This document shows positions 50,129-63,850 of a DNA stretch of 64,000 bases, in pieces. The stretch lies in contig CAWBHS010000110.1 of the NCBI GenBank assembly GCA_963788655.1, forward strand, positions 64,001-128,000, given 5' to 3'. Numbering within the stretch: the first letter of the stretch is position 1; every line of letters begins with the position of its first letter. Under the pieces are notes generated by a model. It saw nothing but the letters and a program-made list of their open reading frames with translations. It was not told the DNA's origin and did no database searches. Both the position numbers and the translations under genes were made by a program. This stretch comes from an uncultured Verrucomicrobiae bacterium. GTDB lineage: Bacteria; Verrucomicrobiota; Verrucomicrobiia; Limisphaerales; JAFGQR01.

Positions 50129-50654
50129 CTTTTGAACTGAATCGTTACGGTGCAGCAGCCAGCGGCGCGCGCCCGATAAGGGGCGTGCCATTGCGTTCAC
50201 ATCCTGCCCAAGCGGCCGCGGGACAAGTAGGCTCAGTCTTGGGTGGCAATCCTGACGAGCCCTCGGCCCATACGCCGGACGAGAGTCTTCTACCAGGTCG
50301 CCACCGCGCCCGCACAGTAGCTGCACTTTGATTCATTCCCGGTTCCAGCCCGTGGTTGCCGGCAGCCTGCAAGTTGGCGACTTCTACTTGCAGCAAGGAC
50401 GACGGGCACAACCACTAAAACTTCCCCGCTCAAAAAAAATAGAAAATCTTCAAAGAGTACTTGCGCCCCGGCGGGGAGTAGGTTAAACAGGTCTGTCTTA
50501 CAAGGGTAGTGAAACTAATCCTACCTGGGTGCTGTAAGGGTCGCTTCATGGCGGACCAACGATTTACACAAGCATTGTGGCGAATAAATTTTATTCTATT
50601 CCACGAGCCGGCGCATTAATTTGCGCCCGTAAGTTTTTACCGCGGTTACACTGA

Positions 50655-51305
50655 ATGGCGGCAATTTTTCCAAAGTGGACAAACCGGGTGCCCGCAATGG
50701 TGATGGCGGGCGCTTTGTTGATGAGCGGCGGGGTGACGGCAGGCGTGTGGTACTATTTTACGCCCAAGTACACCCGGGTCGGTTATCAACCCATCCAGCC
50801 GGTTGCCTTTTCCCACGCGATTCATGTGGACCAGGTGGGCCTGGACTGCCGGTATTGCCACACGGACGTGGAACGGTCCTGGTATTCGAATGTGCCCTCG
50901 ACGTCCACCTGCATGAATTGCCACAAGCACATTCTCAAGGACGATCCCCGGCTGGCGCCCGTGCGCGAAAGTTATGATATGGAGCAGCCCATTCGCTGGG
51001 TGCAGATTCACAAGTTGCCGGACTACGTGTATTTCAACCACTCGGTCCACGTGAACCGTGGCATTAGTTGCGTGATGTGTCATGGCCCGATTAACAAGAT
51101 GGACGTGGTCTATCACGCCAAGCCATTCAGCATGACGTTTTGCCTGGACTGCCATCGCAATCCGGGTCCCAACCTCCGGCCCAAGGATCAAATTACCAAC
51201 CTGGATTGGGATCCGCACCAACACCTGCCGAAGGAGTGGTTTGCCCGCGCCAAGAAGGAGTGGAAAATCAACGCTTCGCAAAACTGTTCCGCCTGCCATC
51301 GATGA
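50655..51305 (+). CDS. actA: Alternative complex III pentaheme cytochrome c
   Basis: One TM helix, QPVAFSH and five CxxCH motifs (CRYCH, CMNCH, CVMCH, CLDCH, CSACH). Confidence 0.93.
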   Translation: MAAIFPKWTNRVPAMVMAGALLMSGGVTAGVWYYFTPKYTRVGYQPIQPVAFSHAIHVDQVGLDCRYCHTDVERSWYSNVPSTSTCMNCHKHILKDDPRLAPVRESYDMEQPIRWVQIHKLPDYVYFNHSVHVNRGISCVMCHGPINKMDVVYHAKPFSMTFCLDCHRNPGPNLRPKDQITNLDWDPHQHLPKEWFARAKKEWKINASQNCSACHR

Positions 51306-54300
51306 AACGGATTCCACCCCCTTGCCCTGAACCGGAAAGCGGCCCGACCTACTGGCGCAGCCTGGATCATTTGGCGGACACGCCCGAGTTTCGTCAGTGG
51401 GTCGAACGGGAGTTTCCCGATGGCGCCAGTGAATTTCGTGACCCGGTTTCACGCCGGCATTTCCTCAAGATCATGTCCGCCTCGTTCATGCTGGCGGGAC
51501 TGGGACTAGCTGGCACCGGTTGCCGGCGTCCGGAGGAACACATTCTCCCGTTTACCCGGCAGCCGGAGGGCTACATCCATGGGATGCCGGAGTTTTATGC
51601 CACGGCGATGCCGACTCGTCGTAGTGCGGTGCCGCTGGTCGTCAAAGCGCACGAATCGCGTCCGGTGAAAATCGAAGGCAACGCCGAACATCCCGATAGC
51701 AATGGCGGGACAGATACGTTTTCGCAGGCCTCGTTGCTGAGCCTTTACGATCCGGATCGCGCGATGCGGTTCACGTACCAGGGCACAACGACCGAACGGG
51801 CGCGAGTGATGGATTTCCTGGATTCATCGGCCCGGAAATTCACAACCAACGGCGGAGAAGGACTGTGCTTCCTGCTGGAGCAAAGCAGCTCACCTTCGCG
51901 GGAACGATTGCTGGCGGCGATCAGCAAGAAATTTCCCCAAGCCCAATGGTTCGTTTATGAACCGGTGAACTTGGACGTCGGGAACAGCGTGGCCAGCGCA
52001 TTGGCCGGTCAACCGGTTAGATCGCGCCACCATCTGGACCGGGCCAAGGTGATTCTTTCGCTCGACTGCGATTTTATTGGGGCCGAGCAGGACGCGCATC
52101 GGTTCATTCGCGACTTCGCGCGTGGACGGAAGCTTACCGGTCCCGGCGATACGATGAACCGCCTTTATGCGGTGGAAGGCTTGCTGACTCAGACCGGCAT
52201 GAACGCCGATCATCGTCTGCGCGTGCCGACAAGTACCGTCGTGGCCATCGCCGCTGCCATCGCCGCTGAATTGGTGACGGGGAATGCGGCAATCAAGGCG
52301 TTGGCGCAAAAGCATCCTTTGCCCGCCGAAGTGGACCGGGCGTGGGTGACCGAATGCGCGGCGGACCTCAAGGCGAACCGCGGCTCGTCATTGATCCTGG
52401 CCGGGTATCGCCAACCGCCGGCCGTTCACGCGCTGGCGCACTGGCTGAACCAGATGTTGGGCAACAGCGGCAAGACCGTCGAGTTCGTGCCGGATTTGCC
52501 GACGCCGGGGAGCATCGAGCAATTGGCCCAATTGCTCGACAACGGCAAGGTGGACACGCTGGTGATCCTGGGCGGCAATCCCGTCTATAACGCACCCGCC
52601 AATCTCAATTGGGCTTCGGCGCAAGCCAAAGCCAAAAGCGCCGTGGTGCGACTGGGTTATTTCGAGGACGAAACCTTTGCGGCCAGCACCTGGCATTTGC
52701 CGATGGCGCACTATCTCGAGTCCTGGGGCGATGCCCGCACCGGCGATGGTACGCTCGTGCCGGTGCAACCGTTGATCTTCCCGCTGTTCGGCGGCTTGAC
52801 TGAACTGGAAGTCCTGGCCCGGATCGGCGGACTGCAAAGTTACCGGCCCTATCAAACGGTTCGCGACACGTTCAAAGAACTGGAAGGCGCCGACAATTTT
52901 GAAGAGAATTGGAAGAAGTTTTTGCACGACGGTTTCCTGGCCAACTCGGCGGTCAAACCAGTTTCGGTGCAATTTGCGCCGGCGCGGTTGGCAACATTGA
53001 TCAATAACGCCACGGCCACGCCGGCTCCGGACAAGGATCGGGTGGAAGTGGTATTCCAACGCGATTACAAGGTGGATGACGGCCGGTGGAGCAACAACGG
53101 CTGGCTCCAGGAAATGCCTGATCCAGTGACCAAAATGACCTGGGACAGCGCCGTGTTGATGAGCCGCAAAACCGCCGAGGCTTTTGGGGTGCAGGCCGCC
53201 CCCACCTCGGGACCGCACCACGGCCGGGCGGAGATGGTGGAAATCGAATTGGACGGGCGCAAGGTCAAGGGGCCGGTTTGGATTCAGCCCGGCATGGCGG
53301 ACTTCGTGGTGGGATTGGCGCTCGGTTACGGCCGGAAGAAGACCGAGCGAGGCGGCACGGGGCGCGTCGGTCATAACGTGGGCGCTTACAATGCCTACGC
53401 CTTGCGCACCAGCGGGGCGATGCACTTCACCGTGGGCGCCAAGTTGCGTCAAGCGGTGGAGACCTATCAGGTAGCCTGCACGCAGGAACACGGCGCGATG
53501 GAAGGACGACCCATCATTCGTGAAGCCAACGCGCAGCAGTACGCCGAAACGCCGCAGTTCGCGAAGAACATGGATCCGATGGCCCACACGCCCTTCATTC
53601 CCAAGGACGCCGAGGGCCGGCCCATCAAGATTTACGAGCACCCGTATCATGCCTACGATGACCGCAAGTCGCAGGACGGGGTTGATCTTTCCGGAAAACT
53701 GTTCCACAGCGACGTGCATCAATGGGGGATGTCCATTGACCTGAATTCCTGCGTCGGATGTACGGCGTGCGTGATGGCCTGCCAGAGCGAAAACAACATC
53801 CCAATCGTGGGCAAGGACCAGGTGTGGCGCAGCCGCGAGATGCACTGGATCCGGATCGACCGCTACTACAGCGGCGACCGGGAAAAGTCGCACGCGGAGA
53901 TGATCGACGATCCGCAAGTCGTCGTGCAACCGATGATGTGCCAGCACTGCGAAGCCGCGCCGTGCGAAAACGTCTGTCCGGTCAACGCCACCGTCCACGA
54001 TGAAGAAGGCTTGAACGTGATGGTCTACAACCGTTGCGTCGGCACGCGTTATTGCTCGAACAACTGTCCCTACAAGGTCCGCCGCTTCAATTTCTTCGAT
54101 TACAACAGCCGCACCGTTCGAGCAGTTGCGGGGACCGTTTTATCCGACGCCGTTGACCAGCGTTACGGACGGCGAATGGGACCTTGAAACGTTGGTGGAA
54201 GAATCCGCAGCGCGGCACGCCAACCGGAAGACGAATGGGAGTTGCATCAAATGGTGAAGAATCCGGATGTCACGGTGCGCATGCGCGGCGTGATGGAGAA

Positions 54301-54709
54301 ATGCACGTTCTGCGTCCAGCGCATCGAGCACGCGAAGATCGCGCAGAAGGTCAAGGCCGGGCGAGTCCGGCGATGTGCAGGTGCCCGAAGGGACGATTCA
54401 AGACGGCCTGCCAGCAGGCCTGTCCCGCGGACGCGATTGTGTTCGGCAACTTGCTGGACCCGAACAGCCAGGTGTCACTGCTCAAGGCAACGGGACCGGG
54501 ATTACTCCGTGCTGGCGTATCTTGCTCACGCGGCCGCGCCTGACTTATCTGGCGCGGGTGCGCAATCCGAATCCGCGCGATGCCGGATTACCATGAGATT
54601 CCGTTGAACATCGCAGCTTACGTCGAGGAATGAGCCCGAGAATCCATTCGCGCCGCATGCCGGGGAGGCCGGCGCTGAGGCGCACTCGCCAGAGAAGGGA
54701 GAGCACTAA
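51302..54709 (+). CDS. actB: ACIII molybdopterin-oxidoreductase-like / Fe-S fusion subunit, frameshifts after about 54110
   Basis: YWRSL, Tat/lipobox SRRHFLK...GCRRP, and Fe-S motifs [37 protein letters not shown] and EKCTFC. Confidence 0.92.
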
Positions 54710-56151
54710 TGGCTGACACTCTCATCAAGTCCGTTCCCAGTATCCACGCCGACACCGGCGGAATTGGAGCGCATGCCGCTGGTGGCGAACCAGCGCAGCG
54801 TCGGCTGGATTTCCGACCACATTGCCGAGCGTGGCGGAAGGCAAGACGCCGTTGTGGTGGTGGATCGCGTTCGTTCCGAGCGTGCTGTTGACGGTGGTGC
54901 TGCGTTAGCATGATGACGTATCTCGATCTCCACCGGCGTGGGCGTCTGGGGCTTGAGACACCCGGTGATGTGGGGCTGGGACATCATCAATTTCGTCTGG
55001 TGGATCGGCATCGGCCACGCCGGCACGCTGATTTCCGCGATTCTCTTTCTGCTGCGCCAGCGCTGGCGCACGGCCGTCAACCGCGCGGCGGAGGCCATGA
55101 CGATTTTTGCCGTGATGTGCGCCGGACATTTTCCCGCTGATCCACGTCGGGCGCGTCTGGTTTGCCTGGTGGTTGTTCCCGATCCCAACGTCCAACGGCA
55201 TCTGGCCGCAGTTCCGGTCGCCGCTGATGTGGGACGTGTTCGCGGTCTCGACCTACTTCACCGTTTCGCTGCTGTTCTGGTACATGGGCTTGATTCCCGA
55301 CCTGGCCATGATGCGCGATCGGGCCAAGACCAAAGTCCGGCAGATTCTTCTACGGTATTGTTCGCGCTGGGCTGGACCGGCTCGAACCGGCACTGGAGCA
55401 ATTACGAAAAGGCCTACTGATTCTGGCCGGCTTGGCCACGCCGCTGGTGTTGTCGGTGCACTCCATCGTGTCCTTGGACTTTTGCGGTGTCGCAGTTGCC
55501 GGGCTGGCACACGACGATCTTCCCGCCTTACTTCGTGGCGGGCGCGATTTACTCCGGGTTCGGCATGGTGCTGACGCTGCTGGTGCCGCTGCGCAAGATC
55601 TGCAAGCTGGAGGACATCATCACGATGCGGCACATGGAAATGATGTGCAAAGTGACGCTGGCGACGGGTTCCATCGTCGGCTACGCCTATGCGATGGAGT
55701 ATTTCATCGCCTGGTACAGCGGCAATCCTTACGAGCGATTGGACCTTCTGGCAACCGCGTGTTCGGGACCTACTGGTACGGCGGTACTGGACGATGCTGT
55801 CGTTCAACGTGCTGTTGCCGCAGTTGTTCTGGTTCAAGAAGATCCGGACCAGAACCTGGTGGTGGTGTTCATCATTTCGATCTTTGTGAACATCGGCATG
55901 TGGTTCGAGCGGTTCGTCATCATCGTCGACGTCGCTGTACCAGGATTTCCTGCCGGCCAACTGGGGGTATTTCCAGCCGACGTGGGTGGACATGTTGCAC
56001 GTATCTGGGCACGATTCGGTTTGTTCTTCACGCTGTTCCTGCTGTTCATGCGGTTTCTGCCGATGATCGCCATTTCCGAAGTCAAAGGCGTGACGCCGCA
56101 GGCGGACCCGCACCATCCGCTGGGCGGCGCCGAAACGGAGGGCGTCACTGA
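54709..56151 (+). CDS. actC: ACIII NrfD-family quinol-binding subunit, multiple frameshifts
   Basis: [64 protein letters not shown] and [10 protein letters not shown]. Confidence 0.9.
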
Positions 56152-56690
56152 TGAGCAGAGTCCACTCAAACCTACGGAATGATCGCTGAATTCGGTACGC
56201 GCGGCGGAAATGTTGCACGCGGCGCGAAAAGGTGCGCGACGCGGGCTACCGCGCTGGGACGTGTTCACGCCGTTCCCGGTGCATGGCATGGACGAGGCGA
56301 TGGGCCTGGGAATTCGAAGGTCGGCTGGTTCACCTTCATCGGCGGGGTCACGGGTTACACACGGGCATGCTGATGATCTGGTGGATGAACGCTTACGACT
56401 ATCCGATTGGTGGTCGGGCGGCAAACCGATGTTCAGCCCGTTCCCGGCGTTTCCCGCCGTCCTACGAACTGACCATTCTGCTGGCGCGTTCGGTGCGTTG
56501 ATCGGCATGCTGATCCTGAACCGGCTGCCGCGACTGCATCATCCGCTGTTCAAGTGCCCGGTTCAAGAAGGTGACCCACGACGGATTTTTTATCGCGATT
56601 GAGGCGGACGATCCGAAGTTCTCCGCTGAAGCAACCCGCAGCTTGCTGGAACGCGCCGGCAGCCAGCACATCGAAGAGGTGAAGGACTAA
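56151..56690 (+). CDS. actD: ACIII subunit D (DUF3341), multiple frameshifts
   Basis: FTPFPVHGMDEAMG, GGKPMFS, YELTILL and NRLPRLHHP fragments. Confidence 0.85.
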
Positions 56691-57346
56691 TGCGCTACAT
56701 CTTTCTCACCTTTATTCTCGCGGTGGTGGCGGTGGTGGTGATTGCCGGGCGTCGCGGCGACTTCTCCGGCGACCGCCGATTGAAGTTTTCCCCGACATGG
56801 ACCGACAACCGAAACTGCGGCCGCAAACCGACAACAAGTTTTTCCCCGACGGAATGAGTTCGCAGCCTGCGGTGCCCGGCACCGTGGCGCGCGGTTCGGC
56901 TTATCAAGACGACGCCGTACAACACCGGAAAGATCCCCGGCACGACTAATTGGGTGGAAATCCTGCCGGTGCCGGTGACTGCCGAATTGATGGCCCGCGG
57001 GCGGGAGCGCTACAACATATATTGCTCGCCGTGCCACGGTCCCACCGGCGCCGGCAAAGGCATTACCACGAATCCGATTTACGGCATGATTGGCGTGGCC
57101 AATTTCCACGATCCGCGCCTGGTCCGCATGGCGGACGGCGAAATCTTCAACACGATCACCTACGGCAGTCCGGCGCAACTGATGCTGGCTTACGGCGGCA
57201 TGATTCCGATTGCGGACCGCTGGGCCATCATCGCCTATGTGCGGGCTTTGCAGCGTTCGCAGTTGGCGACGTTGGACGACGTGCCGGCGGACATTCGCCC
57301 GGAATTGACCAAACCGTTGGCGCCGGGCACGGGAGGGACGCAATAA
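56690..57346 (+). CDS. actE: ACIII monoheme cytochrome c, frameshifts in the 5' half
   Basis: FPDMDRQPK...PGTVARG...RGRERYNIYCSPCHG...DRWAIIAYVRALQ. Confidence 0.88.
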
Positions 57347-57348
57347 TT

Positions 57349-58593
57349 ATGAACGGCTCGACCTTTGTTGCTACCGTCACGCCGGAACAGCGAAAAGCGC
57401 TGGAGGCCAAAGTCTCGCGGCTGGCGCTGGTCTTCCTGGTGGGAGGCGGTTTGCTGGGGCTCATCGGCCTGTTCACGAATCCCAAACAGTTTGCGTTTTC
57501 GTATCTGCTGGCGTTCATGTTTTTCCTGAGCATTTGTTTGGGAGCGCTGTTCCTGGTGATCATTCATCATCTCTTCGACGCCAACTGGTCGGTGCCAATC
57601 CGGCGAGTTTCGGAACACCTGGCGTTTCTGGTGCCGGTGATGGCGGCGTTGTTCATTCCGATTGCCCTGTTGGGGCCCTCGCAGATTTATTCGTGGATGC
57701 AGAGTGTGCTGGCCGGCCATGCCAACCTTGAGCATGCCTTGCGCGCCAAGCAACCACTCTTCAATCTGCCGTGGTTTTATCTGATTGCCGTGATCCTGTT
57801 CGCGGCGTGGACCTGGCTCTCGTACAACCTGCGCAAGTATTCCATTCAACAAGACCAATCCGGCGCGGCGCGCTGCACCTACAAGATGCGGATGCACTCG
57901 GCCTACGGAATCTACGTGTTCGCGTTCTCGATCACACTGGCGGCGGTCTTTTGGATGATGGCTCTCGAGTACCAATGGTATTCGACCATGTATGGCGTCT
58001 ATTATTTCGCAGGCAGCGTCTGGACGACGTTGGCTACGTTGTACGTGCTGGGGGTGGCGTTCGTGCGGACGGGACCGTTGAGCGCGGTGATGCACCGCCG
58101 GCATTTTCATGACCTGGCCGTGCTGTTTTTTGCGTTCACGGTGTTCTACGCCTACATCGCCTTTTCGCAGTATTTTCTGATGTGGAACGGCGCCATTCCC
58201 GAGGAAACATTTTTCTTCGTGAAACGCGAAACCGGCTCGTGGTGGAGCATGGGTTTGTTGCTGATCTTCGGTCATTTCTTTTTACCGTTTCTGGCCATGC
58301 TGCGGATCGACACCAAGCTGTGGCTGCCGTTGATGCTGCCGTTGTGCGCCTGGGCCTGGATCATGCAATTCTGCGACCTCGCGTTCAACATCATGCCAGT
58401 GTTGCACCCGGAAGGGTTCCAACCGCATTATCTGGACTTTGCGTGCCTGGCCTTCATCGGCGGGGTGCTGGCAATGGTCTTTATCCGGTACTTCAAACAG
58501 CATGCGCCGTATCCGGTGAAGGATCCGCGGCTGGAAGAATCCATCGGGCTGCGTCATGGCGGACCGTTGCCGCCGGCCACGGCACCCGAGTAA
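57349..58593 (+). CDS. actF: ACIII membrane subunit F
   Basis: About 10 TM helices; WSVPIRR, WMMALEYQWYSTMYG and FSQYFLMWNGAIPEET. Confidence 0.9.
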   Translation: MNGSTFVATVTPEQRKALEAKVSRLALVFLVGGGLLGLIGLFTNPKQFAFSYLLAFMFFLSICLGALFLVIIHHLFDANWSVPIRRVSEHLAFLVPVMAALFIPIALLGPSQIYSWMQSVLAGHANLEHALRAKQPLFNLPWFYLIAVILFAAWTWLSYNLRKYSIQQDQSGAARCTYKMRMHSAYGIYVFAFSITLAAVFWMMALEYQWYSTMYGVYYFAGSVWTTLATLYVLGVAFVRTGPLSAVMHRRHFHDLAVLFFAFTVFYAYIAFSQYFLMWNGAIPEETFFFVKRETGSWWSMGLLLIFGHFFLPFLAMLRIDTKLWLPLMLPLCAWAWIMQFCDLAFNIMPVLHPEGFQPHYLDFACLAFIGGVLAMVFIRYFKQHAPYPVKDPRLEESIGLRHGGPLPPATAPE

Positions 58594-58600
58594 AGTGCGA

Positions 58601-58975
58601 ATGAACGTCAAGCTGACATCTCGAAGCAGTGTGGCGGCCCTGGCGGTGAGCCTACTGGGCTGCCTGCTTCTGGTCTATGCCCTGGTGAAAACCGTGCAAC
58701 ACTACATGCAACCGCCGCCGTTGAACGCCACCCGCGTCGAGGAACGCCAGAAAGCGCTGGCGGAATTGCGCGCGCGGGAACAGGAGCAAACGCAGAATTA
58801 CGGTTGGGTCGATCAAGCACACGGCATTGTGCGCCTGCCGATCACCAACGCCATGGAACTGACCATTCGGGAATATCGCAATCCGTCGGTGGCCCGCACC
58901 AATTTGCTCACCCGCCTCGAGCAAGCCACGAAGCCCCTGCCGAAACCTGAACCGCCGCCGAACCCATTCGAATAG
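58601..58975 (+). CDS. actG: ACIII subunit G-like
   Basis: Single TM helix; YGWVDQAHGIVRLPITNAMEL motif. Confidence 0.75.
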   Translation: MNVKLTSRSSVAALAVSLLGCLLLVYALVKTVQHYMQPPPLNATRVEERQKALAELRAREQEQTQNYGWVDQAHGIVRLPITNAMELTIREYRNPSVARTNLLTRLEQATKPLPKPEPPPNPFE

Positions 58976-58981
58976 CCGGCG

Positions 58982-60472
58982 ATGACCGCGTCCGTTACTC
59001 CCGCTCCCCAAACTTCCGAGACCGCGGCCGCGACGCCGATGGTCGAGCCGCGTGATTCGGTAGCGATCATCGATGCGTCGTGCCGATGGCCGTTAATGCT
59101 GTTGTTCATTGGCGGCCTTGCCTGGCTACTGGGCGGGATGTTCCTGGCCATCATTGCCTCGGTCAAACTGCACGCCCCCGGCTTCCTCGCTCACGCCGCC
59201 TGGCTCACGGTGGGGCGGTTGCGTCCGGCGGCCATGAACGCGCTGATTTACGGTTTTGCGACGCCCGTCAGCCTGGGCGTCCTGATGTGGATGCTGGCCC
59301 GCTTGGGCGGGCTGCGCTTGTTGTATCCCGGTCCCGTTTTTGTGGCCGGCCTGATGTGGAATTTCGGCGTTGTCAGTGGCGTGTTGGGCCTCCTGGCGGT
59401 TGGTTCCACTGGTTTTGAATGGCTGGAAATGCCACCGTACACGCCGCCGTTGTTGTTGATCGCATTTCTCGTCCTGGCCATTAGCGCGCTGATGAATTTC
59501 TCCTTTCGCCGGGAGAAGACCGGGTATGTCTCGCAATGGTATTTGCTGGCGGGCTTGTTCTGGTTTGTCTGGATCTATTCGGCCTCGAGTTACCTGTTGC
59601 TCTACCATCCCGTGCGGGGCGTGCTCCAAGCGGTGGTGGGCGCATGGTTCACCAGTAACCTGCTCGGCCTATGGCTCACGTCCGTGGGACTGGCGATCGT
59701 TTTCTACTTCATCCCCAAACTCCTCCAGCGTCCTTTGCAGAATTACTGGCTGGCGGTCTTTGGCTTTTGGACCCTGGCGGTCTTTGGCAGTTGGACGGGG
59801 CTGGCCCAGTTCGCGGGTGGACCGCTGCCGCGCTGGATGGTCAGCGTCAGCGGCGTGGCCAATGGGTTGATGATTGTGCCGGTGCTCGCCGTGGCGCTGA
59901 ACTGGCATTGGACGCTGGTCGGGAAATATCATCAGTTCAAAACCGACTTCGTGTTGCGGTTCGTCTTGGCCGGCGCGGTTTCGTATCTGGCGGCCAATCT
60001 GTTGGCGAGTGTGGTGGGATTCCAACCATTGGCCGCGCTGACGCAACTGACGCTGGTGCCGGTCGCGCGCGTGCAACTGGCCCTGCATGGCTTTGTGGGA
60101 CTCACGCTCTTGGGCGCCTTGTATTACATCCTGCCGCGATTGCTGCAAGTGAACTGGCCATCGATGAAACTGGTGCGGTTCCACTGGCTGGCCTCGGTCA
60201 TTGGTGTGGCGCTCATGTTCGTGGCGTTACTGGTCGGCGGCCTGATTCAAGGCGGCCGATTGCTGAATCCGGACACCGATTTCGTCAGCGTGCTCAAATC
60301 GACCATTCCGTTTCTCGGCAATGCCGCCTTGGGACTGTGCGTCTTGCTGACGGGCCAGGTGGCCTTGGGGTGGAACCTCGGGTTGATGTTGTGGCAATAT
60401 TGCCAACAGAGCAGTCCGGTAACTGAACTGTTGGAGGCGGTGGACGCCGCGGAGGCGGGAGGGCGACCATGA
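58982..60472 (+). CDS. CcoN (cbb3 subunit I)-like protein lacking all canonical metal ligands
   Basis: About 12 TM helices; GRLRP, EWLEMP, YVSQWY and YFIPK retained; His ligand positions substituted. Confidence 0.85.
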   Translation: MTASVTPAPQTSETAAATPMVEPRDSVAIIDASCRWPLMLLFIGGLAWLLGGMFLAIIASVKLHAPGFLAHAAWLTVGRLRPAAMNALIYGFATPVSLGVLMWMLARLGGLRLLYPGPVFVAGLMWNFGVVSGVLGLLAVGSTGFEWLEMPPYTPPLLLIAFLVLAISALMNFSFRREKTGYVSQWYLLAGLFWFVWIYSASSYLLLYHPVRGVLQAVVGAWFTSNLLGLWLTSVGLAIVFYFIPKLLQRPLQNYWLAVFGFWTLAVFGSWTGLAQFAGGPLPRWMVSVSGVANGLMIVPVLAVALNWHWTLVGKYHQFKTDFVLRFVLAGAVSYLAANLLASVVGFQPLAALTQLTLVPVARVQLALHGFVGLTLLGALYYILPRLLQVNWPSMKLVRFHWLASVIGVALMFVALLVGGLIQGGRLLNPDTDFVSVLKSTIPFLGNAALGLCVLLTGQVALGWNLGLMLWQYCQQSSPVTELLEAVDAAEAGGRP

Positions 60473-61173
60473 ACTACGGTCCCTTGCTTTTCTTTGGCGT
60501 TTTCCTGACACTGACCAGTTCGTTCTGGGGTCTGGTCGTGGCGCCCCAATTACAGCTTGGCCGGCAGATGCCCGTCGCCCAGGAAAACGTGGGCCAGTTC
60601 TATCCGGCGCCCCGCTCTGGACTGGCCCAGGAAGGCGCGCAGGTGTACCGCACGTTGGGGTGCGTGGAGTGCCACACGGAACAGGTGCGCGGCTTGGGCA
60701 GTGATCTCGCCCGCGTTTGGGGCGAACGTATTTCCGTGGCTCAGGATTATCTGTACGACGACCCGGTTCAACTCGGCCAGCAACGGCTTGGGCCGGATTT
60801 GACGAACATTGGCGTCCGGCAAACCAACGCCGTCTGGCATTTCCTGCACCTCTTCGATCCCAAACTTACCGTGGTAGGTTCACCGATGCCGCGGTACCCG
60901 TTCTTGTTCGACCGGGAACCGGAAGGAACCCAGTTCCCCTCCCCTTGGGCGCTGACCCCGGAGTTGGAACAGAACGGCCGCAAATTCCACCTGGTTCCCA
61001 AACGGGAGGCCCGGGCCCTGGTGGCGTACCTGTTGAGTTTGCGGTCAGAAGTCTCCTTGTTTGAGGCGCCCGGGCCCAAGCCGGAAACCAACGCGCCCCC
61101 GGCGGGCTCAACTTCCACCAATCAAACGTCCACTCCCGCGGCTGTGAAAACCGGCTCCGCACCCGCGCCATGA
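60469..61173 (+). CDS. ccoO: cbb3-type subunit II (CcoO/FixO)-like monoheme cytochrome c
   Basis: GCVECHTEQVR, RLGPDLTNIG and HLFDP...SPMPRYPFLF. Confidence 0.88.
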   Translation: MNYGPLLFFGVFLTLTSSFWGLVVAPQLQLGRQMPVAQENVGQFYPAPRSGLAQEGAQVYRTLGCVECHTEQVRGLGSDLARVWGERISVAQDYLYDDPVQLGQQRLGPDLTNIGVRQTNAVWHFLHLFDPKLTVVGSPMPRYPFLFDREPEGTQFPSPWALTPELEQNGRKFHLVPKREARALVAYLLSLRSEVSLFEAPGPKPETNAPPAGSTSTNQTSTPAAVKTGSAPAP

Positions 61174-61937
61174 AGAAGCGAAAGGCCAAGTCCAGCAAAG
61201 CGCGTCCGGCACCCGAACGTCCGCAAGTAGCTCCGAAGGCGCCCAGCCCCGAGCTGGCTCGGGTGCCATCCGTCAAGCCGGCCCGCAAAACGCCTTCCTC
61301 TCGACCGTCTGCGGTGGCCAAGCCCTTGGACGAATCGCCGGAGCCCACCGTGCGTCAAGGTTCGCCGATGCCGGTCATGATGATTGCCCTGTTGGGCTTG
61401 CTCCTGTACTTGGGCGAAGTCCACGTGATCGATACGGCTGGGGACTTCGATCCCCGGGTTTATTATCCATACCAGTCGGTCAAGCAACTCGAAGACCTCC
61501 AACCCAAATCCGCCGCCGACGCCATGTATGTCCAGGGGCGCAAGGTCTATAATTCCATCTGCATCCAATGCCACCAAGCCAACGGCCAGGGTAATCCAGC
61601 GATGTTTATTCCACCGCTGGTGGGTTCGGATTGGGTGCTCGAACCCGAGCCCGGACGCATCATCCGCATCGTATTCAAAGGACTCCAGGGCCCCATTACC
61701 GTGAAAGGCGAGAACTTCGGCCAGGGCGCAATGTTCGCGGTCGGCGATCAGTTGCCGGGAAATGAGGAGGAGAGAATTCAAGAAGTCGCCGCCGTCTTGA
61801 CGTACATTCGCAGCACCTGGGGCAACAGCGCGCCGCCCGTAACAATCGAACGGGTACAAACGGCTCACGAACAATTCAAGAACCGCACTGCGCCCTGGAC
61901 CGCCGACGAGTTGCTGAAGCTCGAACCGAGCGAATAG
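61170..61937 (+). CDS. Membrane-anchored class I cytochrome c
   Basis: Lys/Pro-rich N-terminal tail, TM helix, CIQCHQANGQG...PPLVGSDWV...AAVLTYIRSTWGN. Confidence 0.88.
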   Translation: MKKRKAKSSKARPAPERPQVAPKAPSPELARVPSVKPARKTPSSRPSAVAKPLDESPEPTVRQGSPMPVMMIALLGLLLYLGEVHVIDTAGDFDPRVYYPYQSVKQLEDLQPKSAADAMYVQGRKVYNSICIQCHQANGQGNPAMFIPPLVGSDWVLEPEPGRIIRIVFKGLQGPITVKGENFGQGAMFAVGDQLPGNEEERIQEVAAVLTYIRSTWGNSAPPVTIERVQTAHEQFKNRTAPWTADELLKLEPSE

Positions 61938-62142
61938 GGGCACCCAAGGATTGTTGGTGGTTTCCAAACGTTAGTTTGGCGACCACGCATTGTCCGTTCT
62001 TATCCCACGAAGGAGTTGAAACCACGGAGTGCTTGGATTGCTCGGATGGGGAAGAGCTTGGCTGAAACGATTCAGTTGGGAGGACGAGCAAGCCGCCGCG
62101 TGGGCCAAGCGGCGAGTGGAGAAAACCTTTGACTTCCGGCCC

Positions 62143-62181
62143 CCCAACGAGCTGCCAGCGGGATGCCGGCAGCACGTTGGG
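62143..62181. repeat. Solo hairpin of the same family as the 120-bp array unit; possible terminator between convergent genes
   Basis: CCCAACGAGCTGCCAGCGGGATGCCGGCAGCACGTTGGG. Confidence 0.65.
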
Positions 62182-62197
62182 TTGAAGTGGCGGGTGG

Positions 62198-63850
62198 TTA
62201 CGCGGCTTGGTTCAGGATCGCCTTGAGATCCTCAGCCGCCGTCTTGATTGGCATCAGGTTGAATTTCTCGACCAGCACCCCAAGCACATTGGGTGACACA
62301 AATGCCGGCAACGTCGGACCAAGCCGGATGTTCTTGATGCCCAGGAACAGCAAGGTCAACAGAATCGCCACGGCTTTTTGTTCGTACCAGGAGAGCACGA
62401 GCGACAACGGCAGGTCATTGACGCCGCAGTTAAAGGCTTTGGAAAGGGCCACCGCGATCTGGATGGCGGAATAGGCATCGTTACACTGGCCGATGTCCAG
62501 CAACCGCGGCAGGCCGCCAATGGTGCCAAAGTCGAGTTTGTTGAAACGGAATTTACCGCAAGCGAGGGTGAGGATCATACAATCCTGAGGAACGGATTCC
62601 GCGAACTCGGTGTAATAATCCCGTCCTGTTCGCGCGCCGTCACAGCCGCCGACCAGGAAGAAATGCTTGATGTCCCCGCCCTTGACGGCCGCGACAACTT
62701 TGTCGGCGACGTTCATCACGGCATTATGGCCGAACCCGGTCAGGATGGTTTTATCCGGACCATCCTCCGCAAATCCCGGTGCGGCCAAAGCCGCCTCGAT
62801 GACCGGACTGAAATCGCCATCAGCAATGTGCCGGACATCGGGCCAGGCTACTAAACCGGAAGTGAAAATTCGGTCTTGGTATGCCGGCTGCGGTTCCTGG
62901 ATGCAGTTGGTGGTCATCAGAATGGCGCCGGGGAAGCTTTTGAATTCATCCTTTTGATCCTGCCAGGCGCCGCCGTAATTGCCGACCAGATGCGGGTAGG
63001 CCTTGAGCCGCGGATAGCCGTGCGCCGGCAGCATCTCGCCATGCGTATAGATATTGATGCTCTTGCCTTCCGTTTGTTTAAGCAGTTCTTCGAGATCCTT
63101 GAGATCGTGACCCGAAACCAAAATCGCCTTGCCTTGGAGGGGTTCAATGCGCACGGGCGTTGGCACGGGATGGCCGTAGGTCGTGGTGTGCGCCTGATCG
63201 AGCAATTCCATCACCTGCAAATTGATATCTCCGCACTTGAGGCACAGCCCCAGCAGGCCATCCACGGTGGGATTTGGTTCCGCCAATGCACTCAACGCTT
63301 CATGGAAGAAGGCGTAGATCCCGTCTGCCTCCCGGCCCAGGATCAGCGCGTGGTCGGCATAAGCGGCGGCGCCTTTGACGCCATACAACAACAAGTCCTG
63401 CAATCCGGCCACGTCGGGTCCGAATCGGTCGCGGCGGGACAGCGACGAAACCATCTCCCCTTGTTTGACCAAGCCGTCGGCGGAATCGGCCGGCACCCAG
63501 GTTGAAGGGCCATTGAATGTTTCGGTTGCCGATCCGGCCTTGGCCGCCGCGGCGACATACAGGGTGCGGGCCTCGTCCCGCAGAGCGGCGGCCTTGCGAA
63601 TGATCGGCTCGATGCGTTGCGCGTCAAAATTTACGTTCGTCACGGTGGTAAACAGCGCCTCGATTACAAACCGGTCGAGCGTGGGATCTTTCGCCCCGAA
63701 CTGCCGCGCCCGGTGCGCGAATTGGGAAAGGCCTTTGGTGGCATGCACCAGCAGATCCTGGAGCATGGCGGTTTGTTCATCCTTGCCGCACGTGGCAAAA
63801 TCAGTGCAGCCGGTCCCTTTTGAAGTCTGTTCACATTGATAGCAAAACAT
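62198..63850 (-). CDS. hcp: Hybrid cluster protein (hydroxylamine/NO reductase), class I spacing
   Basis: MFCYQCEQT..C..CGK (C-X2-C-X8-C-X5-C), SGHDL, THGEMLPAHGYP, GGCDG, LACGKFR, GQCNDAY and SWYEQKA. Confidence 0.97.
   Translation of the reverse strand: MFCYQCEQTSKGTGCTDFATCGKDEQTAMLQDLLVHATKGLSQFAHRARQFGAKDPTLDRFVIEALFTTVTNVNFDAQRIEPIIRKAAALRDEARTLYVAAAAKAGSATETFNGPSTWVPADSADGLVKQGEMVSSLSRRDRFGPDVAGLQDLLLYGVKGAAAYADHALILGREADGIYAFFHEALSALAEPNPTVDGLLGLCLKCGDINLQVMELLDQAHTTTYGHPVPTPVRIEPLQGKAILVSGHDLKDLEELLKQTEGKSINIYTHGEMLPAHGYPRLKAYPHLVGNYGGAWQDQKDEFKSFPGAILMTTNCIQEPQPAYQDRIFTSGLVAWPDVRHIADGDFSPVIEAALAAPGFAEDGPDKTILTGFGHNAVMNVADKVVAAVKGGDIKHFFLVGGCDGARTGRDYYTEFAESVPQDCMILTLACGKFRFNKLDFGTIGGLPRLLDIGQCNDAYSAIQIAVALSKAFNCGVNDLPLSLVLSWYEQKAVAILLTLLFLGIKNIRLGPTLPAFVSPNVLGVLVEKFNLMPIKTAAEDLKAILNQAA

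Follow-up and report, generated by a model that had tools for sequence, protein, structure and literature searches.

A gene located at positions 58982 to 60472 of a 64,000-nucleotide stretch of DNA from an uncultured Verrucomicrobiae bacterium (assembly GCA_963788655.1, contig CAWBHS010000110.1; the whole stretch is called the window below) encodes a 496-amino-acid homologue of CcoN, the subunit I of cbb3-type haem-copper oxidases, in which the six histidine ligands and the cross-linked tyrosine are missing. It lies behind the genes of an alternative complex III (ACIII) and is followed by two genes for membrane-anchored monohaem cytochromes c, the first of them CcoO-like. Since all the ligands have been lost and yet the gene is under selection behind ACIII genes in many Verrucomicrobiota, the most likely explanation is that this pseudo-CcoN is a redox-dead scaffold holding two c-type haems on ACIII, and not an oxidase, a reading to which a probability of about 60% is given.

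The reading frame is open over 496 codons without interruption, and the CcoN scaffold motifs which the original prediction, made from the sequence alone, had recognised were found again, the relevant stretches being GRLRP at residue 78, RPAAMN at 81, YVSQWY at 182, WFTSN at 222, YFIPK at 242, GSWTGLAQ at 269 and ARVQ at 362. In a phmmer search against the chains of the PDB (five chains at E≤1e-3), residues 43–477 aligned to CcoN (9g6b_A, E 1.1e-28; 3mk7_A, E 1.7e-27), RPLHTN, WYGHN, YIWAGPHH and GHVH of CcoN being paired with RPAAMN, WFTSN, GSWTGLAQ and ARVQ, respectively. In this alignment A84, S225, G269, A275, Q276, R363 and Q365 face His60, His207, Tyr251, His257, His258, His345 and His347 of 3mk7_A, positions which we take to be those of the two haem-b histidines, the haem-b3 histidine, the three CuB histidines and the cross-linked tyrosine. 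None of the six histidine ligands is kept, the tyrosine is replaced by G269, and the seven histidines of the whole protein all lie away from the ligand sites. The ligand substitutions originally claimed were all confirmed, with the refinement that the column of the haem-b histidine corresponds to A84, the second alanine of RPAAMN.

The family models give a mixed answer. The protein scores 137.6 bits with Pfam COX1 (cut-off 34.8) and 138.9 bits with NCBIfam TIGR00780, the equivalog model of ccoN, below the cut-off of 583.15. NorB proteins are characterised by haem ligands together with three His and a Glu for FeB; pseudo-CcoN has no His at any ligand position and does not qualify as a NorB (cNOR/qNOR) protein. 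The AlphaFold2 model, built from a 140-row alignment (predicted local distance difference test score, pLDDT, 94.4; predicted template modelling score, pTM, 0.92), has the 12-helix fold, and its best Foldseek matches are CcoN chains (template modelling score, TM, 0.84–0.90), above NorB and the A- and B-type subunits, NorB 3o0r_B being weaker than CcoN (E 5e-10 vs 7e-19).

The loss is not restricted to the ligands. Thr215, Tyr223, Ser240 and Tyr317 of Pseudomonas stutzeri CcoN are presumably residues of the C-family proton-uptake channel, a role which Buschmann et al. are said to have described in 2010. These columns are kept in 65–66 of the 66 liganded relatives, whereas in the 129 ligand-less rows the commonest residues are Gly (47 rows), Phe (59), Ala (108) and Phe (59), although Thr is still present in 25 rows and Tyr in 51 and 43; the window protein has Thr233, Phe241, Ala258 and Tyr335. 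O2 reduction would be impossible for such a protein, since haem b, haem b3 and CuB could not be held and the proton-uptake hydroxyls are lost, and no reduction of O2 (or NO) is predicted for it.

The substitutions are not due to chance, since the pattern recurs in hundreds of homologues. A search over 5.8 billion proteins, in which 8000 candidates were scored, gave 423 matches at E≤1e-3. Among 120 aligned rows (the query and 119 homologues, 43–69% identity), no His is present at the six sites in 102, one in 14, two in 1, three in 1 and six in 2. A phmmer search over 1.84 billion representatives at 50% identity gave 1742 matches at E≤1e-3, with 346 at E≤1e-30, and the 136 full-length rows among the best 150 representatives have no His in 90 cases, one in 35, two in 6, four in 1 and six in 4. 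At the position of the cross-linked Tyr, 107 of 129 ligand-less rows have Gly or Ala, whereas all 66 liganded ones have Tyr. Variation within the clade is free at the seven lost sites, where Gly, Asn, Ser, Ala, Thr, Gln, Arg and Leu occur.

When one genome per species was scanned, 514 species proved to have a relative, and the best 80 of those loci belong nearly all to Verrucomicrobiota (Limisphaerales, Opitutales, with two cultured Opitutaceae strains included, and Verrucomicrobiales). With the window proteins as tblastn queries, the operon order actA-F, orf, ccoN, ccoO, cytochrome c was seen to recur in related loci. The full set of six act genes precedes ccoN in 55 of the 80 and part of it in 16, each of the latter with less than 6.1 kb of upstream DNA. 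In nine no act gene is seen upstream; seven of these have less than 1.3 kb there, and the other two, L016 and L065, both liganded, show none in 10 kb. A fully liganded CcoN (HHYHHHH) is found in 63 of these loci and a ligand-poor one in 14 (L007–L009, L011, L020, L021, L026, L029, L036, L040, L049, L072, L083 and L086), and act genes precede 13 of the 14, the last having only 416 nt upstream. The rest of the 80, L039, L079 and L080 from Opitutales, keep the haem His and have lost the Tyr and one or two of the CuB His.

The frequency of both forms was determined in a sample of 401 evenly drawn Verrucomicrobiota genomes, that of the window included, where 91 strong matches were classified from their tblastn translations. 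The ACIII-linked CcoN family is present in 90 of the 400 other genomes, 48 of them with liganded copies only, 35 with only a copy having 0–1 His, 6 with partial copies (2–3 His) and one (G366) with both forms, so that 42 of the 90 carriers have at least one copy without most or all ligands. Both forms are found inside single families (11 liganded, 22 ligand-less and 1 with both in family f7; 22 liganded and 4 ligand-less in f6). Same-strand act genes precede all 42 ligand-less or partial copies: ActA-F were all found within the fetched upstream stretch in 38, one locus is cut by the contig end, and the remaining three have only ActE, ActF and an ActC-like match upstream. Some single cases can be added. 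In G366 the ligand-less copy follows ACIII (L102, contig C168) and the fully liganded one lies elsewhere (L156, contig C20), which may represent real co-occurrence or contamination. L150, L152 and L153, from family f14, keep two or three His (HHGQHFI or HHGQQFI), and in the ligand-less L201, L203, L227 and L228, from families f8 and f18, a cytochrome-c-like gene replaces the small reading frame found elsewhere between actF and the CcoN-like gene.

The descent of these proteins was followed with a quick IQ-TREE analysis of 88 rows, a short search without bootstraps in which five canonical CcoN served as the root. The liganded verrucomicrobial rows form the basal grade, and all 43 ligand-less rows together with 9 partial ones form one 52-row clade (Shimodaira-Hasegawa approximate likelihood ratio support 83, or 95 minus the first branch), inside which the window protein groups with L007, L008, L009, L011 and L092 (99). 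A FastTree tree of 210 rows is in agreement, the liganded rows clustering together (70 rows, 97). By its place in the tree and in the operon, the window protein is assigned to a ligand-less, ACIII-linked CcoN clade of Verrucomicrobiota, for which no name was found in print and which the rooted tree nests inside the liganded, ACIII-linked C-type oxidase family of the same phylum. The first branch of the clade, P0132, has the pattern HHAQYHH, with the haem His kept and the Tyr and two CuB His lost, and the loss seems therefore to have been stepwise, with the CuB and Tyr ligands of the active site going before those of the haems. L039, L079 and L080, the intermediates from Opitutales, look like independent repeats of the first of these steps.

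The ligand-less genes have remained under selection. The Nei-Gojobori ratio of nonsynonymous to synonymous substitution rates (dN/dS) has a median of 0.17 (range 0.09–0.46) in 13 ligand-less pairs with dS <2, in none of which the window's own gene takes part, and a median of 0.13 in 854 liganded pairs. With the ligands lost throughout the clade, a median dN/dS far from 1 and a confident CcoN fold, the cofactor-free 12-helix pseudoenzyme of the original prediction is supported. These data bear also on whether the gene is a decaying pseudogene or an artefact of metagenome assembly, as the frame breaks in the adjoining actB-actE (see below) and the state of the genome (8.96 Mb in 115 contigs, 86% complete, 5.6% contamination) might suggest. 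This is scarcely credible, given the 496 open codons, the same substitutions in hundreds of independent records and the dN/dS values of the 13 pairs; moreover, the relatives end with the same three genes and the contig extends past the operon, so there is no sign of a break after 61937.

As regards the residues which have been conserved, 69 positions are at least 95% conserved in the 120-row set, and 39 are at least 85% conserved in both the liganded and the ligand-less classes, a comparison made uneven by the closer kinship among the liganded rows. These 39 are mostly Trp, Gly and Pro, the polar and other members being Arg79, Arg107, Asn127, Glu149, Gln216, Tyr242 and Thr357; no His, Met, Cys or Lys is found among them, so that no replacement ligands could be recognised. 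Specific to the ligand-less rows are only two positions, Arg176 and Gly370, neither of which could be a ligand, and a new catalytic motif of the clade was rejected on these grounds. An N-terminal I-D-A-S-C-R motif before helix 1 (residues 30–35, DNA about 59069–59086) is common to both classes, with Ser33 at least 85% conserved in both and Asp31 present in 98% of the liganded rows.

Two alternatives can be judged from these positions. In the first, a cofactor would still be bound via other residues and serve a different redox reaction, as in the NOR-type members of the superfamily, whose active site has changed repeatedly according to passages of PMC11214002; in addition, some clade members keep one to three His, and the Methylacidiphilum proteins described below keep one CuB His. 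Nevertheless, this is improbable, given the lack of His, Met, Cys and Lys among the 39 positions and the free variation at the seven sites, and every NOR family described in those passages keeps its haem ligands (PMC11214002). In the second, the protein would form a proton or ion pathway working with the ActC and ActF channels of ACIII, an idea close to the repurposed ion channel of the original prediction. The 12-helix fold is kept and Arg79, Arg107, Asn127, Glu149 and Gln216 are conserved, but four of the conserved polar residues are common to the liganded enzymes, Arg79 and Gln216 lie at the predicted CcoO interface, and the channel columns are degraded in the ligand-less rows. With the hydroxyls that the liganded relatives keep replaced by Phe, Ala or Gly, the repurposed channel is not supported and a pathway of this kind is held to be quite improbable. 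In the redox-dead scaffold reading, pseudo-CcoN itself probably binds no cofactor.

The scaffold reading depends on the partner, CcoO. When pseudo-CcoN and CcoO were co-folded, a score of 0.84 was obtained (0.84–0.86 in three runs), as against 0.00 for the best of three controls; a mark of 0.84 is reached by 116 of 157 solved complexes and by 2 of 215 mismatched pairs. At least 96% of the contacts are common to the runs, and the pLDDT of the partner is 79. Furthermore, the predicted CcoO interface (84 residues) holds 14 of the 39 conserved positions (odds ratio 3.1, Fisher p 0.002) and 23 of the 69 near-family ones (p 0.0002), and pseudo-CcoN probably still binds CcoO in the cell. The 33 CcoO sequences compared, taken from operons of both types, all have Cys65, Cys68, His69 and Met140, and in the ligand-less loci CxxCH is found in every CcoO gene (13 of 13) and in every last cytochrome that was located (10 of 10). 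The scaffold originally suggested as one possible role gains from all three results, that is, the invariant haem motifs of CcoO and the cytochrome c, a co-fold that passes its controls and a conservation enriched at the interface.

An insertion of 70–100 amino acids was observed right after CxxCH..QVR in six of eight CcoO of ligand-less operons (L007, L009, L011, L026, L040 and L072; alignment columns about 84–183); it is absent from all 24 CcoO of liganded operons and from those of the window, L008 and L086.

The operon to which the gene belongs, and the stretch after it, read as follows.

50655 to 51305, plus strand: actA, the pentahaem cytochrome c of ACIII; frame intact, Pfam Cytochrome_C7 and Cytochrom_CIII, 49–71% identity to the first operon gene in related loci.
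51140 to 54607, plus strand: actB, molybdopterin-like subunit with 4Fe-4S clusters; Pfam Fer4 dicluster matches, in-frame stop at 54185–54187.
54752 to 56182 (approximate), plus strand: actC, NrfD-like membrane subunit; Pfam NrfD, read in three frames with about three 1-base shifts between 55130 and 55490.
56014 to 56687 (approximate), plus strand: actD; Pfam ActD PF11821, split over frames, L007 ActD aligning in three frames.
56687 to 57346, plus strand: actE, monohaem cytochrome c; Pfam Cytochrome_CBB3 and Cytochrom_C, one in-frame stop at 56855–56857, L007 ActE aligning over residues 1–217.
57340 to 58593, plus strand: actF, second NrfD-like membrane subunit; intact, 31–67% identity to the gene in the same place in related loci.
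58556 to 58975, plus strand: orf139, one-helix protein of 139 amino acids at the position of ActG; a family found in Verrucomicrobiota only.
58982 to 60472, plus strand: pseudo-CcoN, 12-helix homologue of haem-copper oxidase subunit I without the six His ligands or the cross-link Tyr; 496 amino acids.
60469 to 61173, plus strand: CcoO-like monohaem cytochrome c with N-terminal membrane anchor; Pfam FixO 93.5 bits, CVECH at residues 65–69, Met140.
61170 to 61937, plus strand: membrane-anchored monohaem cytochrome c (CcoP-like, CIQCH), last gene of the operon; Pfam Cytochrom_C and Cytochrome_CBB3.
61957 to 62181, no strand: intergenic stretch with inverted repeats at 61957–61986 and 62143–62181, between the operon and a convergent Prismane/hcp gene.

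ActA to ActE each have a Pfam match upstream of pseudo-CcoN, and the order actABCDEF identifies the set as ACIII. No Pfam match was obtained for actF, which is 67% identical to its L007 counterpart over 413 amino acids. For orf139, no Pfam or NCBIfam family was found and its Atlas neighbours are only verrucomicrobial clusters without names; it sits between actF and ccoN in most loci, liganded and ligand-less alike, and ActG is itself a one-helix subunit in the account given in passages of PMC5928083. The last three genes are joined by ATGA overlaps at both junctions (60469–60472 and 61170–61173), in accordance with the coupled CcoO read from the sequence at the outset, whose CxxCH (CVECH) and Met ligand, the invariant Met140, are both in place, as is the CIQCH of the last cytochrome. 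The end of the operon at a hairpin facing hcp was also recovered, in the form of the two inverted repeats ahead of the convergent gene. A terminator and promoter scan of 61700–62400 called nothing, the repeats after 61937 not being called as terminators because they have no T run.

The genome provides for O2 reduction elsewhere, since it has genes for A-type CtaD and for a cytochrome bd oxidase, which fits one of the electron acceptors originally suggested, an oxidase encoded elsewhere. Three A-family CtaD genes score 583–738 bits on TIGR02891, two of them (675 and 738 bits) exceeding the cut-off of 670.75, and the cytochrome bd oxidase lies on contig C62. A second ACIII operon was found on contig C88 (about 128700–140350), followed by the CtaD of 675 bits, so that of the two ACIII in the genome one is paired with a live oxidase and the other with the dead shell. 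In addition, a divergent haem-copper oxidase subunit I is present on C11 (110171–113515; L004/L006) in two frames with one TGA, its pieces scoring 162 and 48 bits with Pfam COX1 and matching no NCBIfam family. No second FixO or CcoN of any kind was found in the genome, the CcoO of the window being its sole FixO match.

Several observations have to be set against the scaffold reading. At an ActB p-distance of 0.25–0.45, ligand-less pairs (n=23) differ in CcoN by a p-distance of 0.51 and liganded ones (n=262) by 0.26, these pairs being non-independent, and in the same bin that of CcoO is 0.46 in ligand-less and 0.33 in liganded operons; ActA and ActF are not faster in the ligand-less operons. 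Relative to ActB, the ligand-less CcoN evolves about twice as fast, which means that its constraint is relaxed and its role may be minor. Constraint is relaxed about two-fold and is far from absent. Moreover, the sequence evidence would be compatible with a haem bound through residues other than His or through a partner subunit; the co-fold is a sign of likeness and not a proof of binding, since cbb3 structures have been solved and the two subunits are a textbook pair; the co-fold took in CcoO only, and contact with ACIII is suggested by synteny. The electron acceptor of the module is a guess. Finally, about nine stops or frameshifts lie in actB-actE within 54185–56860, which, if real, would make this ACIII copy dead and leave the module without its partner here.

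These disruptions comprise one stop each in actB and actE and about three shifts each in actC (of 1 base) and actD, and the other ~9 kb of the operon has none of them. The C-terminal part of actB resumes in the same frame from 54242, the intact L007 ActB reading through the stop in tblastn, and the frame changes of actC are visible both against L007 and in the three-frame translation; the broken act fragments, those of actC included, are still 57–93% identical to their relatives. The breaks look more like local consensus errors than old decay. A look for sequencing runs of the organism gave no RNA run and a single DNA run, a soil metagenome (X1; 5% of sampled words), which over 50500–62200 yielded mostly fragments less than 95% alike, from the conserved act genes of other organisms, and three near-identical short pieces besides.

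The relaxed constraint on CcoN and CcoO in ligand-less operons lends some weight to another explanation, in which pseudo-CcoN would be a structural relic with no part in electron flow, persisting together with its cytochromes because the assembly or stability of ACIII came to depend on them (constructive neutral evolution), with the electrons leaving via ActA and ActE as they do in other bacteria. The clade has no specific conserved residues of note, and in Flavobacterium the monohaem ActE was reported to be non-essential for transfer to aa3 (PMC8552683). However, CcoO has invariant haem-binding residues (Cys, Cys, His and Met), and no ligand-less locus examined has lost the CxxCH of the last cytochrome, features which a purely structural role would not need, and this explanation is considered unlikely.

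The redox-dead scaffold is therefore preferred, and the following mechanism can be proposed for it. The ancestor would have served as catalytic subunit in a C-type (cbb3-like) oxidase of Verrucomicrobiota that was encoded behind ACIII and presumably attached to it. Pseudo-CcoN would have retained the 12-helix fold and its binding surface for CcoO, together with a structural role, anchoring CcoO and the membrane-bound cytochrome c, and with them two c-type haems, next to ACIII, a docking to which the shared gene order points. These two haems would extend the haem wire of ActA and ActE as an electron exit, leading to acceptors encoded elsewhere, which in this genome may be the three A-type oxidases. 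More tentatively, ACIII with the dead CcoN shell, CcoO and cytochrome c could be a distinct and widespread quinol:cytochrome c reductase with a two-haem exit arm, feeding whichever terminal reductase is available (the A-type oxidases here, N2O reductase where nos genes lie in the cluster); this wider proposal is thought somewhat less probable than not.

A connection with cultured organisms was provided by one of the sampled genomes, G132, which has a very divergent copy in the same orf-ccoN-ccoO-cytochrome c module. A search with this copy retrieved proteins of Methylacidiphilum infernorum, M. kamchatkense Kam1, M. fumariolicum and M. sp. Yel (P0295, P0300, P0274 and P0296), to which NCBI gives the names "cbb3-type cytochrome c oxidase subunit I" and "cytochrome oxidase". 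In the six sequences examined, one of the six His is left and the Tyr is absent; in the Methylacidiphilum proteins (pattern S-E-S-S-H-F-V) the remaining one is a CuB His. These proteins are only 23% identical to the window protein, and their branch in the tree is very long (2.1), its exact placement being uncertain. Reviews count this cluster as a cbb3 oxidase adjacent to ACIII, list it among the three terminal oxidases of these methanotrophs and tie it to their high oxygen affinity (PMC8498564, PMC6688271). In the RNA-seq supplement for strain SolV (PMC3404531), the sole genes labelled ccoN or ccoO in two tables are transcribed: under maximal growth, N2 fixation and O2 limitation, ccoN (Mfum_700072, 1446 nt) has 134, 124 and 170 reads per kilobase per million mapped reads, and ccoO has 356, 247 and 440. 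From its name and matching length (481 amino acids), Mfum_700072 is probably P0295. As to gene neighbourhoods, the orf-ccoN-like-ccoO-cytochrome c module of L186 (G132:C1:950000-968000) is immediately preceded by NosL-, NosD- and ABC (NosF-like) genes together with a small cytochrome c, and an A/B-type COX1 lies downstream of it. A nos cluster inside the ACIII cluster, beside 'cbb3' genes, is mentioned for a Methylacidiphilum species in a passage of PMC11102522.

The clade genes carry the name "cbb3-type cytochrome c oxidase subunit I" at NCBI and JGI, and the presence of ccoN is a widely used marker of high-affinity, microaerobic respiration. If the wider proposal above, of a distinct respiratory module, is true, about half of the verrucomicrobial genomes scored with an ACIII-linked 'cbb3 oxidase' would be without such an oxidase, including all four Methylacidiphilum examined, and growth of these bacteria at low O2 would depend on other enzymes. 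The family also offers a clean natural example of a membrane pseudoenzyme, in which the metals were lost stepwise and the fold and the partner interface stayed under selection throughout. Since Methylacidiphilum is cultured and the gene is transcribed, the role of a dead oxidase on ACIII is directly testable. No published description of a ligand-less CcoN was found in the full-text searches made, and subscription papers might bear on its novelty.

Among known systems, the closest in structure is the CcoN of the cbb3 (C-family) oxidase of P. stutzeri (3MK7/5DJQ), which shares the 12-helix fold (root mean square deviation 2.1 Å to 3mk7_A) and is alignable over the full length at 22–24% identity, with GRLRP and YFxPK common to both. 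The gene is likewise coupled to one for a haem-c CcoO and then to a further membrane-anchored cytochrome c. Unlike CcoN, however, the window protein has neither the six His nor the cross-link Tyr, and its channel hydroxyls are replaced; the third subunit is monohaem, whereas the CcoP of cbb3 is dihaem; and no ccoQ or ccoGHIS was seen beside the gene, which sits instead behind actABCDEF. With the ligands, Tyr, channel and equivalog score of CcoN missing but its fold and partner kept, the protein would behave as part of a respiratory supercomplex and not as an oxidase.

The liganded ACIII-linked C-type oxidase of Verrucomicrobiota (Opitutaceae, Limisphaerales) has the same operon and is 38–44% identical, but it keeps the six His, the Tyr and the channel Thr, Tyr, Ser and Tyr, and has evolved at about half the rate relative to ActB. 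It is the 'C-type oxidase next to ACIII' of Refojo et al. 2010, as quoted in PMC8498564. The Methylacidiphilum copies belong to the same ligand-poor clade as the window protein and share its orf-ccoN-ccoO-cytochrome c module, but keep one His. The ACIII-caa3 supercomplexes of Flavobacterium johnsoniae and Rhodothermus marinus likewise have an oxidase-type module directly behind the act genes, and in those bacteria the module is physically bound to ACIII, according to passages of PMC5928083 and to Sun et al. 2018 as quoted in PMC8498564. Their module is an active A-family oxidase, whereas that of the window, only putatively bound to ACIII, would be a cofactor-less shell of the C family.

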